Source: Escherichia phage GaoY1-9D
DNA: 50,368 nt
Sequence record: PP971806.1
Direction: 5' to 3' (one strand)
Below the pieces are notes generated by a model. That model saw only the letters and a program-made list of their open reading frames with translations. It did no database searches and was not told where the DNA came from. Each line of letters opens with the position of its first letter. Positions within the stretch are counted from its first letter, which is position 1. The translations under genes and the position numbers were made by a program. This document shows positions 2,982 to 48,420 of the stretch, in pieces.

Positions 2982-3304
2982 TTTACATTCACACTTACGG
3001 AGTCGGCAAGTTCGGTAAAGAGATTCGCCGGACCGTTCACGAAACGAAGGAATCAGCCGAAGCGGCGCAAAAAGTTCTCGGCGGTGAGTTCAAGGCTTAC
3101 CGCGACGCAGAAGACTCAGTTGAATGCTGGCAGATTGAGCACATGCGCAATGTGCTGGAAAGCGAAGTGTCGGAACTTATCGACAACATGACGTGTCACG
3201 GCCCTGGCGGACCATGGGAAGAACCAGGCTCACCGGAATGGGATTGCGCCAAGGTTGACACAATGAACAAGATCAGCGAAATCATTGATGGGGTGTACGA
3301 ATAA
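2978..3304 (+). CDS. hypothetical protein
   Basis: ORF overlapping previous stop (ATGA). Confidence 0.5.
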   Translation: MIYIHTYGVGKFGKEIRRTVHETKESAEAAQKVLGGEFKAYRDAEDSVECWQIEHMRNVLESEVSELIDNMTCHGPGGPWEEPGSPEWDCAKVDTMNKISEIIDGVYE

Positions 3305-3543: not shown

Positions 3544-3730
3544 GATCAAGAATGGTGACGTGATCAAGTGTATCGGCGCGCGCGGTTATGAGTTCTTTAC
3601 TGGCTGCGAGTACACAGTGGAAAAAGTTGATTCCCAGGGATACGTTTACGTCTACAGTGACGAGGGGAACAAGGTCGCGATCGACTACCCTGTTTGCCCG
3701 ACGTATGGAACTTTCAAAAAAGTTGATTGA
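3536..3730 (+). CDS. hypothetical protein (64 aa)
   Basis: internal ATG 3536 with RBS GGAGAAAG; same frame as track ORF 3473..3730. Confidence 0.45.
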   Translation: MSKIKNGDVIKCIGARGYEFFTGCEYTVEKVDSQGYVYVYSDEGNKVAIDYPVCPTYGTFKKVD

Positions 3731-3915
3731 CAGCCATCTCACTGACTGGTATCTTTAATCTCGTAAACAGAAGAGGCCACCAAGTGGTAACGAGCGGTTC
3801 GTAAGCCGCAAATTGAAATAGCGCATCGCCAAAAGCAAAGTGTAAGTCGCAATAAAATCGAGGCATTGTGAAAGCCTGCCGGACTCCGTAACCGGACCTA
3901 ACAATGAGGTTTGAT

Positions 3916-4101
3916 ATGTTTGAAGTCAAGCTAACTATTTTGCTAATGGGGCGCACATGCGCATCGTGTAAGCAAAACTTTGAAGCAAAGGTTGAGGCCA
4001 GCAGCGCCGAAGAAGCCGTTTCAAAGGTGAAGGAAATGAGCGGAGTCGACACAACGACTCATAAATTTTTAGTTAATTATGTAAGGGGTATTTCATGCTG
4101 A
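3916..4101 (+). CDS. hypothetical protein
   Basis: ATG 3916 preceded by TGAGG; track ORF 3904..4101. Confidence 0.4.
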   Translation: MFEVKLTILLMGRTCASCKQNFEAKVEASSAEEAVSKVKEMSGVDTTTHKFLVNYVRGISC

Positions 4102-4745: not shown

Positions 4746-5282
4746 ATGAAAGATGAAAACTTCACCAGCACCGCTCAAGAGAAGGTGCGCATTGGAAACT
4801 TCAAAGAGCTGTACAACAAAAAGTATGGCGACATTGCCAACCTGAACCATCGTCATCCAATGACGCCTGAGACTGTATTCAACCTTGCGGTTAAATATTT
4901 CTCATGGGCCGAGGACCAGGCAATTAAGGCAATCGAAACGGCGAGCTCCCAGGGCGTTGTCACTGAGAACCTAGTGCACAAGCCGCGAGTGTTCACGCTT
5001 AACGGCTTCCAGCTTTATTGCGGCGTTACCTCCGGTGCTATCCAAAGCTGGCGCGCGTCGCCTGGATTCTCTGAGGTAATGGAGTTCATCGACTCAGTAA
5101 TTATTGAACAGAAATATCAGTTAGCTGCGTCCAACCTTATCAACGCCGGATTCGTAGGCAAAGACATTGGTATCGACAAGGCGGCAGAAGTGAACGTGCA
5201 GAACAACGTATCGGCTGGCGCGGTGTCAGTAACTACTGATGAATTTAAAGAAGCCGTCAAGGATATTTTGGGGGAATTATGA
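4746..5282 (+). CDS. terminase small subunit (putative)
   Basis: position immediately upstream of and overlapping the large terminase; size 178 aa. Confidence 0.5.
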   Translation: MKDENFTSTAQEKVRIGNFKELYNKKYGDIANLNHRHPMTPETVFNLAVKYFSWAEDQAIKAIETASSQGVVTENLVHKPRVFTLNGFQLYCGVTSGAIQSWRASPGFSEVMEFIDSVIIEQKYQLAASNLINAGFVGKDIGIDKAAEVNVQNNVSAGAVSVTTDEFKEAVKDILGEL

Positions 5283-10767: not shown

Positions 10768-10795
10768 TTGACCGTTTAACAAAAAATGCTATTAT
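10768..10795 (+). promoter_or_regulatory. sigma70-like promoter for capsid gene
   Basis: TTGACC, 16-bp spacer, TATTAT. Confidence 0.55.
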
Positions 10796-44859: not shown

Positions 44860-45666
44860 TTATATGTCGCTGAAAACTTCACAGCTTTCACTGCAAGATC
44901 CGGTGTCGAATGATTTGGCCCCTCTAACCCTTGAGGCTATCTCATCTCTCGACTGTGGAAACATCTGTATAATGTCACCGATTGAGCGCCTTCCTCTGTA
45001 CATGTCAGATGATGATTCCTTTTTATTGTGCTCACTAATTGTGTCAATGAATAGCTTTGCAAGTTCCGGCTCATCTTTACACGCAAGCGCAATCTTAAGC
45101 TCTGACTTCTTGATGCAGAAAACGCAGTTACCAAGATGCTCATCAATTTCAAGGTCAAATGGCATGTCATGCCAGAAGTCGATAATGTCCTGTTTTTCGA
45201 AATCAGATATGTCAGCAAGGTAACTGAACCCATCGACGGGTTTTAGTCTCTTTGGCTCATCGGCACGAATACCAATCCATCTCTGATAATTACCCTTACC
45301 ATACTTCTCCTCGCAGTACTTCTCGAATGGCTTAGTCTTCATCCTGTTCGTACAGAATGGCCCGCCTTGGTATGGATTTCCGTACTTCCTTAGCATTCTA
45401 ATCCACCCAGTCAGATCATGGTGAATGTCATCGACGCTGACAACTTCGAAAGATGGAGCCCCGCGGAACTTATCGCTGGGCAAACATCTCAGGCAGGTTA
45501 TCGGCCTTGAAAGCATTGATGAGACTTTACGGATAAACTCATATGTCTTCGGATGCTCTGCTCCAGTGTCCATATAAATCACCTCCGCGTCAGGATGAAT
45601 CTTGAGTACCTCAAGTGTCATGTATGCCGAAGTCCTGCCGCCGCTAAAACTAATTACCTGATTCAT
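44860..45666 (-). CDS. PAPS reductase-family PP-loop ATPase
   Basis: PP-loop SFSGGRTSAYM at N-terminus; ATG 45666 with RBS AGGAG. Confidence 0.7.
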   Translation of the reverse strand: MNQVISFSGGRTSAYMTLEVLKIHPDAEVIYMDTGAEHPKTYEFIRKVSSMLSRPITCLRCLPSDKFRGAPSFEVVSVDDIHHDLTGWIRMLRKYGNPYQGGPFCTNRMKTKPFEKYCEEKYGKGNYQRWIGIRADEPKRLKPVDGFSYLADISDFEKQDIIDFWHDMPFDLEIDEHLGNCVFCIKKSELKIALACKDEPELAKLFIDTISEHNKKESSSDMYRGRRSIGDIIQMFPQSRDEIASRVRGAKSFDTGSCSESCEVFSDI

Positions 45667-45744
45667 TTCAACTCCTATTTGTGCGCTAAATAACAACCAG
45701 ATGATAGCAACTAACCCATGAATGGTCATTAGCAAAAAGTGCTA
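45667..45744 (-). promoter_or_regulatory. cassette-like element upstream of PAPS reductase gene
   Basis: minus strand TAGCACTTTTTGCTAAT at 45728-45744. Confidence 0.45.
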
Positions 45745-46373: not shown

Positions 46374-46901
46374 ATGAGTATGTCAGAGCACAAAGAAGCA
46401 GTAAGCCTCGGTGACGTTATCCGCTACATGGCGGAGCAAGCGCTCAAGTCCGAGAACCGCAGCTACCACGTCCCAATCCATCTAATAGCTCGCCAGGTTT
46501 ACGGCCTCACATCTAGTGATATAGGAGGCATAAGTCGTGAGGATCTGGATGTAGGTGGCAAGTACAGTATGGCAAAGCTGAAGGCGTCATATGTCGCCAA
46601 TACGGTAGCCAGGATGCCAGAGATACAGGCGGCAAACGTTCGTGCAAAACTTTCAATTAAGGATGGTGATTTCGGTGATGACGTCGAGGTTCGGTGTGCT
46701 TATCTGTCTTTGGTTGATGGCGCAATCCAGACAGGAAAGCGAGTGAAGGCAAACTGCCAGATTGCAGAGAAGGCTGTGAGCGACTTTAAGGTCAAAATAC
46801 TCAAGCTGATGCCATCCGTGACTAACTTTGAGGGCGATGAGATTACAGGAGCCATCAAGGCAATCAAAATGTACCAGGAAATGATTAGGGAGACGAAATA
46901 A
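46374..46901 (+). CDS. hypothetical protein
   Basis: ATG 46374 with RBS AGGAG; first gene after AT-rich region. Confidence 0.5.
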   Translation: MSMSEHKEAVSLGDVIRYMAEQALKSENRSYHVPIHLIARQVYGLTSSDIGGISREDLDVGGKYSMAKLKASYVANTVARMPEIQAANVRAKLSIKDGDFGDDVEVRCAYLSLVDGAIQTGKRVKANCQIAEKAVSDFKVKILKLMPSVTNFEGDEITGAIKAIKMYQEMIRETK

Positions 46902-47464
46902 TGTGGATGTTTGATTTTAACGAAGAGAAGCTGACAGATGAGCAGATTATGAAGATTGCTACGGAAGATGGGATTCCACCACTACGAGTTGCAATCAATG
47001 CTAACGGATACCGACAGTCACAAAAGTACTGGTGCGAATTAGAAGTTATGCGTCGCGCAAACCTAAATCGTGAACAATGCGTCGTGGTTGAAAAGATCTG
47101 GAAGCAAGCGATAAATGGAAAAGGCGTTGTGGGAGTTCGCTCAACATATGAGGCGATCAGAAAGGTCCAGCCGTTCGTCGAGCGTAATGGAGTAATGAAT
47201 AACCTGATTGACAATATCCTACCATCACTACAGGACGCGGGAATCATTTGCCTTATTGGTGACAAGATATATGCACACCCATACCTGGTGGGCATGTATG
47301 GGAGAGACATCCACAAGTGGTGCGACTCATGGAGATCGGTTGAGCGCAAATCTCATAGCAAATTGCAGGCAAGCTCAGACATGATTCATGGCTATGATGC
47401 CGATGATGTCAGAAAGGCTGTCGAGTTTTATCGGAAAGCTAAATCACTCCTGAACGGTGAATAG
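46901..47464 (+). CDS. hypothetical protein, truncated paralog of the 40342..41925 P-loop protein
   Basis: shares MFDFNE-KL ... PPLRVAINANGYRQSQ and GKGVVGVRS-YEA-RKV-PF ... CLIGDKIY with the 527-aa protein. Confidence 0.55.
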   Translation: MWMFDFNEEKLTDEQIMKIATEDGIPPLRVAINANGYRQSQKYWCELEVMRRANLNREQCVVVEKIWKQAINGKGVVGVRSTYEAIRKVQPFVERNGVMNNLIDNILPSLQDAGIICLIGDKIYAHPYLVGMYGRDIHKWCDSWRSVERKSHSKLQASSDMIHGYDADDVRKAVEFYRKAKSLLNGE

Positions 47465-47525
47465 CACGAATTGCTAAACAATAAATCGGGTAGTCAGCTA
47501 TGATTACCCTATCGACAACAAAGAG
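47462..47525 (+). promoter_or_regulatory. intergenic cassette copy
   Basis: TAGCACGAATTGCTAAA; GGGTA/TACCC around GCTATGAT; TATCGACAACAAAGAGG. Confidence 0.55.
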
Positions 47526-47528
47526 GAA

Positions 47529-47738
47529 ATGATTATGGAAACTGTACGTATTGACGATGTTCACTTTGACCAAGCAGAGGTCAGCGTTAGAAAAACAGTT
47601 CGTGGGGCGGTTGTATCTCTAGACTTTGATCCTGACGACTACGCAGACTGTCAAACACTGATGCAATACTCACCTGATGCTGCCCGCAAATTAGCTGCGG
47701 CATTAATCCTTGCGGCAGACGAAGTAGAGGGGAAGTAA
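47529..47738 (+). CDS. small protein, paralog 1 of tandem triplet
   Basis: C-terminal motif DAARKLAAALILAADEVEG shared with next two ORFs. Confidence 0.5.
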   Translation: MIMETVRIDDVHFDQAEVSVRKTVRGAVVSLDFDPDDYADCQTLMQYSPDAARKLAAALILAADEVEGK

Positions 47739-47740
47739 TT

Positions 47741-47947
47741 ATGGAATCTGTAATTATCGAAGATTTCGCAGGTGACAGCACAGAGGTGTCAACATCCGTA
47801 TATTACGACGGCATCGTGAGCATTGACATTGACATTGACACCGAAGACCGTGGCTATAGCTCCACTATGGCTCATTACACACCAGAACAAGCACGCAAGC
47901 TGGCGGCGGCGCTTATCCTGGCGGCGGAAGAGGCAGACAATCAATGA
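47741..47947 (+). CDS. small protein, paralog 2 of tandem triplet
   Basis: C-terminal EQARKLAAALILAAEEAD. Confidence 0.5.
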   Translation: MESVIIEDFAGDSTEVSTSVYYDGIVSIDIDIDTEDRGYSSTMAHYTPEQARKLAAALILAAEEADNQ

Positions 47948-48162
47948 GAGACATTCGAGTTAACTCATCATGGAATCAGGAAACAGAAATCTCAGTAATC
48001 AAGGTTCCGTTCGGAAAGATGCGTAAGCGCGTGCACCTGGACCTTTCGCCGGATTCGCAAGTGGATGGCGCTGGCATGACATACACCGCAGAGCAGGCGC
48101 GCGAACTTGCTGCGGCGCTAATTAAGGCAGCTGAGGAAGTGGAGGCGGAAGTCGATGAGTAA
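47944..48162 (+). CDS. small protein, paralog 3 of tandem triplet
   Basis: C-terminal EQARELAAALIKAAEEVEAE. Confidence 0.5.
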   Translation: MRDIRVNSSWNQETEISVIKVPFGKMRKRVHLDLSPDSQVDGAGMTYTAEQARELAAALIKAAEEVEAEVDE

Positions 48163-48355
48163 ATTCAGGATCGCATTGATTGAAACAACAACCGCCTTCG
48201 GTCATCCGGTCAAGTGGTATGCCGTCCAGAAACGGGTGGCCTTGTTCTGGTGGGTGACAGTGGCACATGCAAGCCAGATTGACCAGGCTCGCTACTGGCT
48301 GCATAAGTCCGGCGCACCGCATCGCAAAGAGAATGTGGTGCGAGTGGTAGAATAG
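48155..48355 (+). CDS. hypothetical protein
   Basis: start overlaps previous stop; stop TAG is first triplet of cassette. Confidence 0.45.
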   Translation: MSKFRIALIETTTAFGHPVKWYAVQKRVALFWWVTVAHASQIDQARYWLHKSGAPHRKENVVRVVE

Positions 48356-48420
48356 CACTTTTTGTTAAAACTACCGTGAGTGCACTTGCTATAGTGCACT
48401 CATTGAATCGAAACAACCAA
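48353..48420 (+). promoter_or_regulatory. intergenic cassette copy
   Basis: TAGCACTTTTTGTTAAAA; hairpin GAGTGCAC/GTGCACTC with TGCTATAGT; ATTGAATCGAAACAACC. Confidence 0.6.

Follow-up and report, generated by a model that had tools for sequence, protein, structure and literature searches.

No function is known for about half of the genes that T1-like phages carry, and the way in which these phages shut off their host is unexplained (PMC11447400, PMC13164509). Three adjacent small genes of one such phage, here called A, B and C, raise the question of why proteins that have diverged through their N-terminal halves should end in nearly the same Ala/Leu-rich helix, and of what such proteins may do in the infected cell. 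The window analyzed here, that is, the whole stretch of 50,368 bases from Escherichia phage GaoY1-9D (PP971806.1), looks like the complete genome of a Drexlerviridae (T1-like) phage of Nouzillyvirus type, whose structural module is ~92% identical to those of phages CJ19, XT34, and P817.

All three genes lie on the plus strand. Copy A (47535..47738) encodes a protein of 67 aa with a pI of 4.3 and a net charge of -7, copy B (47741..47947) one of 68 aa with a pI of 4.05 and a net charge of -12, and copy C (47944..48162) one of 72 aa with a pI of 4.8, which carries a basic β2-β3 hairpin, KVPFGKMRKRVH (KMRKRVH), and an acidic tail. The ORF of copy A can also be read from its first ATG (47529-47738); the likely start is the second ATG, at 47535 (METV..., 67 aa), because its distance from the GAGG at 47523-47526 is 8 nt, as against only 2 nt for the ATG at 47529, and because a METV start is common to nearly all relatives. 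All three copies are preceded by a GAGG of their own, at 7-9 nt, and the ribosome-binding sites of B and C fall within the acidic last codons of the gene before. An earlier note on this DNA, made from the letters alone, had described three consecutive ORFs with overlapping start and stop codons; the three consecutive plus-strand ORFs stand, A being probably of 67 aa. A and B are separated by 2 nt, and B and C overlap by 4 nt (ATGA). ORFs running across the array on the minus strand (47587-47781 and 47789-47944) are unsupported, and Rfam and tRNA scans of the window gave no matches.

The array sits in a plus-strand block of small genes that begins past a divergent intergenic region near 46 kb and crosses the window end to reach genes for a polynucleotide kinase (788-1327), a dNMP kinase (1448-2065), and the small terminase subunit (4746-5282). 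In T1-like phages, the genes of this block have been termed presumptive early genes, without an assigned function (PMC11447400), in agreement with the location in a phage early region supposed in the earlier note. The small-gene repertoire of the block differs among relatives, and such a variable setting would suit accessory genes for host interaction. Immediately before the array come the genes for a DUF7174 protein (46374-46901) and for a 187-aa protein of PHROG 7327 (46901-47464). The latter protein had no Pfam match; its residues 57-130 match the C-terminal end of a phage "DNA helicase" (PHROG 2373, E 1e-22). Across the divergent intergenic region, on the opposite strand, lies a PAPS-reductase-like gene (44860-45735, minus strand; PHROG 33262, E 2e-91). 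On the other side of the array, a 66-aa gene of the uncharacterized PHROG 2010 (48155..48355, plus strand), which is outside the A/B/C family, overlaps the end of C by 8 nt and is the last gene of the transcription unit. Because it comes after the C-type gene in the window, in CJ19, and in ETEP102, the two genes may form a linked pair.

The limits of this transcription unit are given by a 21-nt intergenic repeat, AATAGCAC-N3-TTGYTAAA, which matches the window at 19 sites, where 0.06 are expected, and is always oriented with the local genes (at 710, 2065, 2694, 26975, 30404, 31958, 35040, 36354, 47460, 48351, 49016, and 50063, and, on the minus strand, at 10775, 25489, 42591, 43140, 44436, 44841, and 45728). 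The repeat was already known from phage TLS, without an assigned function (PMC11447400). Its AATAG often provides the TAG stop of the gene before. The copy upstream of the array (AATAGCACGAATTGCTAAA, 47460..47478, plus strand) overlaps the preceding gene's TAG and stands at the head of the transcription unit to which the array belongs. The next copy and its hairpin, GAGTGCAC...GTGCACTC around TATAGT (48351..48402, plus strand), close the cassette, so that the repeats at 47460 and 48351 exactly bracket A, B, C, and the 66-aa gene. The repeat also lies ahead of the A-type gene in all Drexlerviridae relatives that were retrieved. What is added here to the published repeat is the hairpin/-10-like spacer and the conserved leader: the repeat is followed by a spacer of ~22 nt that folds into a hairpin, its stem varying from copy to copy, with a -10-like TATAGT/TATAAT inside it; next are a conserved CATCGAAACGAA leader, the ribosome-binding site, and the ATG. 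In front of copy A, the spacer folds into a hairpin GGGTA...TACCC (47488..47509, plus strand) around a -10-like TATGAT (47499-47504), and a promoter scan put the end of the second hexamer at 47504, which makes this hairpin a candidate promoter or punctuation element of the array. With 22 nt between TTGYTA and the -10, the spacing exceeds that of a standard sigma-70 pair, and the hairpins at copies 2065, 36354, and 43158 look like terminators made of a GC stem and a T-run.

Pairwise, A, B, and C are 42-45% identical, and the majority of their 17 invariant columns fall within the helix A52-E65. The BLAST low-complexity filter masks this helix, from which it might be argued that the similarity is an artefact of Ala-rich low-complexity sequence, or that no real genes underlie the ORFs. 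The following results refute this reading, to which we give next to no credence. Compared with shuffled sequences, the helix segments score at z 8.9-12.3, but the N-terminal 45 residues, taken without the helix, are also similar for A-B (z 8.4) and A-C (z 7.6), with 0/3000 shuffles reaching the observed score; the N-termini of B and C alone are not significantly similar (z 0.6) and are connected via A. Moreover, each copy has its own ribosome-binding site, 313 homologs have an intact reading frame, the helix bears the mark of purifying selection, and a fold is confidently predicted. The alignments thus indicate that A, B, and C are true paralogs, homologous over their full length, and they uphold what had been noticed at the outset, diverged N-terminal halves joined to a near-identical C-terminal helix, as a similarity that goes beyond Ala-rich low complexity into a confidently modeled, structured domain.

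The same comparison gives an indication of the age of the copies. At the DNA level, the conserved helix shows abundant synonymous differences among the three genes: by the Nei-Gojobori method, pS in the helix is 0.70-0.88, that is, saturated, for a pN of only 0.14-0.25, and pN rises to 0.46-0.61 in the N-terminal halves. Because synonymous sites are saturated even within the helix, the substitution pattern identifies the copies as old, anciently diverged lineages and not as the product of a recent triplication. Saturated pS together with low pN also implies that the helix is kept by purifying selection on the protein; gene conversion and a DNA- or RNA-level reason for the conserved segment, both of which we considered, are ruled out by the saturated synonymous sites. 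The "tandem triplication" of the earlier note, in the sense of copying in situ, is not supported in that wording, since A-type and B-type genes can each stand alone in this slot in other phages. On these sequence comparisons, the array is better described as three old lineages standing side by side in a variable cassette.

How widely the family is distributed was examined by profile and translated searches. All three proteins match the uncharacterized PHROG 13316 (E 8e-12 for A, 9.8e-32 for B, and 2e-8 for C). A profile search retrieved the 313 homologous proteins mentioned above, almost all on contigs of ~50 kb, and the best 120 of these comprised 78 A-like, 36 C-like, and 6 B-like proteins. 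When 1.8 billion representatives were searched exhaustively with a profile, 102 clusters were returned, many of them of 55-75 residues with the same layout and a helix of the form TPxQARELAAALLRAADEAE; the named members are Streptomyces hypothetical proteins, encoded at the edge of integrated elements with genes for a D5-type primase-helicase, a family-A DNA polymerase, and HNH proteins. No Pfam, NCBIfam, or PADLOC model matched the family above threshold. The commonest weak Pfam match was DUF6907 (39/50 members; 13-16 bits; best member E 1.7e-4), which, at 15.8 bits, stays below the gathering threshold of 26 bits; DUF6907 is, like PHROG 13316 and A/B/C, uncharacterized, and our literature search found no paper on the A/B/C family or on DUF6907. 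A profile scan of 185,579 species genomes gave no chromosomal copy of the T1-like subfamily, and a scan of IMG/VR gave only 5 loci. The family is restricted to phages and mobile elements.

Within phages, the repertoire of copies is variable. A tblastn search of 50,697 phage records, which under-counts copies through low-complexity masking of the helix, found A-type genes in 73 records, B-type in 20, and C-type in 6; copies were therefore counted with a custom HMM in 18 loci, which gave from 1 to 5 per genome. The A-type gene fills the first slot behind the 21-nt repeat in most Drexlerviridae, and the B-type gene is the sole copy in the first slot of the loci matching CEB_EC3a and phiKP26. The C-type gene was found only directly after an A- or B-type copy, with an ATGA overlap, in TH21, CJ19, ETEP102, an IMG/VR contig, and the window; among the loci examined, the window alone combines A, B, and C. 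Two further, more divergent members, types D and E, are absent from the window and usually travel as an adjacent pair, with a 4-nt overlap in five loci (3668-4101 in locus L002, 3982-4415 in L013, 4196-4644 in L014, 2620-3047 in L004, and 2523-2962 in L009); in SU57, an E-like copy was present and no D was detected. GenBank labels the E-type gene of CJ19 "DUF600", seemingly a mis-annotation. A further copy in CJ19, of type A and either frameshifted or truncated, lies at 3036-3209 of its locus (L014).

Two further observations bear on how this repertoire arose. ETEP102 (2273-2479 of locus L016) and CJ19 (3212-3418 of L014) each contain a mosaic copy in which an A-type N-terminus, METVRIDDVHFDQAEVSV, is joined to a B-like second half, VSIDFDTDDQG...HYTPEQARKLAAALILAAEEAENQ, which suggests recombination between paralogs. 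In addition, a single A-like copy is present in LTH01 and W70, unrelated large E. coli myoviruses of the Vequintavirinae (~140 kb; 3001-3210 in both L012 and L018). Its N-terminal 45 residues are 56% identical to those of copy A (tblastn identity 55-63%), and the 21-nt repeat was not found in these two loci. The presence of the gene in such phages indicates that it has moved horizontally between phage families.

Structure prediction, proposed in the earlier note as a check, gave a confident domain of four strands and a helix. The AlphaFold2 model, computed from an alignment of 50 sequences (pLDDT 86.8, pTM 0.70), has the order β-β-β-β-α (strands 4-7, 13-21, 24-30, and 42-45, helix 47-65). In Foldseek searches against the PDB, the top matches were repeat III of PUR-alpha (5fgo, 8chw; TM 0.64-0.69, prob 1.0, E 0.1-0.2), followed by the C-terminal domain of PC4 (1pcf) and the T5 PC4-like protein (4bg7); because the E-values of the PC4/PUR matches are modest (0.1-2 overall, for TM 0.55-0.74) and the topology is simple, we treat the match as a predicted fold-class assignment and not as homology. 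In a structure search of BFVD, the only significant matches were to the family itself. Sequence matches in the PDB to 2js3, a Bfl-1 peptide, and the RelJ/YefM antitoxin were at chance level (E 0.15-0.6); the RelJ match ("SPENARRL") is moreover to a protein of different topology.

The unequal conservation of the proteins fits the architecture of PC4-like domains. Type II PC4-like domains (PC4 CTD, PUR repeat III, T5 PC4-like protein, YdbC) are the best structural matches (TM 0.64-0.74) and are likewise built from half-domains of ~65 residues with the order β-β-β-β-α; two repeats pair with their helices swapped, and the sheets are the ligand surfaces (PMC7549692). The constant helix and divergent sheets of A/B/C parallel this division of labor and would map onto the pairing helix and the ligand-binding sheets, respectively. 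The helix is conserved on all its faces, and three distant homologs have two signature-helix repeats in a single chain, a fused arrangement that would be expected if the repeats pair. On the other hand, A/B/C share no sequence similarity with type II domains, are acidic, and lack the conserved basic and aromatic sheet residues that PC4-like domains use for nucleic-acid binding; known type II domains are symmetric homodimers of one gene product, whereas A/B/C are a set of paralogs whose pairing is a proposal. A small PC4-like fold is also found in AcrIIA22, an anti-CRISPR nickase of 54 aa (PDB 7JTA) that comes from hypervariable phage/prophage regions and has a counter-defense role (PMC8545432). 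However, AcrIIA22 lacks the C-terminal helix, oligomerizes via its strands, and was absent from the Foldseek PDB matches of the copy model; nickase activity is a feature of AcrIIA22 of which there is no evidence in the window proteins.

A second comparison is with Gp4.5 of T7, which is reported to target the Lon protease and thereby to block toxin-antitoxin abortive infection (PMC10286901), and which has also been proposed to counter RADAR (PMC11482910). When aligned with hhalign to Gp4.5 or its family profile, our family profiles gave E-values of 2.5e-5 to 1.2e-4 (probability 55-75%) over 60-69 columns in one register, with a shared ET[VI]R[IL]xD at the start and TxxEQAxxLxxALxxAA at the strand-helix junction. 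The corresponding Pfam family, TA_inhibitor (PF17574), is weakly matched by copy C (15.7 bits, E 0.016; gathering threshold 27 bits) and by 10/50 family members (best E 1.2e-4, below the Pfam threshold); copies A and B gave no match to it. Gp4.5 and A/B/C are small phage proteins, encoded by non-essential accessory genes, in which four strands are followed by a helix that begins right after T-x-D/P-E-Q-A, and the AlphaFold2 model of Gp4.5 (pLDDT 91.4) has the element order of the A/B/C family plus one extra helix at the C-terminus; this order has also been reported for the T5 PC4-like protein (PMC7549692). In contrast, Gp4.5 is basic (pI 9.9, against 4.05-4.8 for A/B/C) and single-copy in T7, and its invariant residues R19, H22, N24, Y34, R35, W36, H45, Q47, and R48 are not shared by the window proteins, in which the corresponding columns are Asp/Glu-rich or variable. 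In reciprocal Foldseek searches, neither model found the other family among its best 50 BFVD matches, with only weak shared neighbors, and the Gp4.5 profile gave nothing relevant against the PDB. A distant common ancestry of the two families is likely, though the link is moderate and unproven, and identity of function is unlikely.

Taken with the predicted fold, these comparisons lead us to a tentative model, for which we would claim not quite an even chance of being correct: A, B, and C would be helix-paired dimers with variable binding faces that act on host proteins early in infection. According to this model, three co-transcribed, anciently diverged paralogs of one small phage/mobile-element protein family would each form a four-stranded antiparallel sheet and a helix, a PC4/PUR-like half-domain stable only as a helix-paired dimer. 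The near-invariant helix ARxLAAALIxAAxE would be both fold core and pairing surface, which would explain why it is constant in all paralogs, and the face of the β-sheet, strongly acidic in A and B and bearing the basic hairpin in C, would be the diverged ligand-binding surface. Early in infection the dimers would bind host proteins, as accessory host-takeover or counter-defense factors, like the probable distant relative Gp4.5, which binds Lon. What we infer here is that the proteins dimerize, that their ligands are proteins and not nucleic acids, that they act early, and that they may have a role in anti-defense; the pI of 4.05-4.8 argues against classical nucleic-acid binding, and a helix-paired dimer acting on host proteins is the most economical mechanism.

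Three other readings have to be weighed against this one. The proteins could be equivalents of Gp4.5 that inhibit Lon, stabilize antitoxins, and so block toxin-antitoxin abortive infection, the copies being tuned to Lon variants or to other AAA+ enzymes. The full-length profile match in register, with its motif T-x-(D/P)-E-Q-A-x-x-L-x-x-A-L-x-x-A-A, the equal order of secondary-structure elements and the universality of Lon, in keeping with a helix that is maintained all the way from coliphages to elements of Streptomyces, all point this way, as does the proposed action of Gp4.5 on RADAR (PMC11482910). But a match below the Pfam threshold, opposite charges, unshared invariant surface residues and the failure of the reciprocal fold search make this reading unlikely. 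A similarly low probability attaches to the idea that A/B/C are true PC4-like nucleic-acid binders, acting as dimers on ssDNA or RNA to aid phage replication, recombination, or transcription, as the T5 PC4 homolog does, or altering DNA topology like AcrIIA22. Here the resemblance to PC4, PUR, and the T5 protein, the many PC4-like proteins encoded by phages, the occurrence of AcrIIA22 in hypervariable prophage regions (PMC8545432), and, in copy C, the KMRKRVH hairpin together with the aromatics W10 and F23 on the sheet region have to be set against the strong acidity of A and B (net -7 and -12, of which about -6 and -10 in the sheet regions, counted from the sequences), against the lack of conservation of basic or aromatic sheet residues across the family, and against the dispensable, accessory nature of the genes, which are missing from most Drexlerviridae.

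This same acidity could instead mean that A and B are nucleic-acid mimics, whose acidic sheets would imitate the DNA or RNA backbone and titrate host DNA-binding defense or nucleoid proteins, in the manner of Ocr and ArdA. The very low pI, the dense Asp/Glu on strands and loops (IDDVHFDQAEVSV, LDFDPDDYAD, IDIDIDTEDRG), the small size of the proteins within a variable gene block, and the position of the acidic surface, on the side with which PC4-like proteins bind nucleic acid (PMC7549692), would be accounted for in this way. Known mimics are, however, not among the fold matches, the conserved part is a hydrophobic helix and not an acidic pattern, the types differ in their acidic positions, and acidity is not uniform among distant relatives; we regard this reading as quite improbable. 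The helix-paired dimer with variable, protein-binding faces therefore remains our preferred, if tentative, reading, and it has a more far-reaching and rather doubtful extension: interchangeable half-domains would pair through the shared helix as homo- or heterodimers (A/A, A/B, A/C...) with asymmetric faces, and would belong to an unrecognized superfamily, extending from coliphages to Streptomyces and including T7 Gp4.5, whose members neutralize different host proteins. Only symmetric homodimers have been reported for PC4-like domains, which sets this idea apart from them.

A/B/C are not categorically new, as they fall within the PC4-like half-domains and the small phage accessory proteins; they constitute an uncharacterized accessory family, and the mode of action proposed for it is plausible. 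The possible heterodimers, and a superfamily perhaps including Gp4.5, are a testable and moderately interesting twist. If heterodimers do form, they would be the first PC4-like domain built from different gene products. If the link to Gp4.5 is true, what looks like the curiosity of a single phage would become part of a wide superfamily of small proteins from mobile elements, and one would look for targets in Lon or in other conserved machinery of the host. For T1-like phages, the family provides a concrete handle on genes without known function, with a predicted fold in which a constant, putative pairing helix is distinguished from variable, putative binding faces, and with natural variants of one to five copies that allow comparison.
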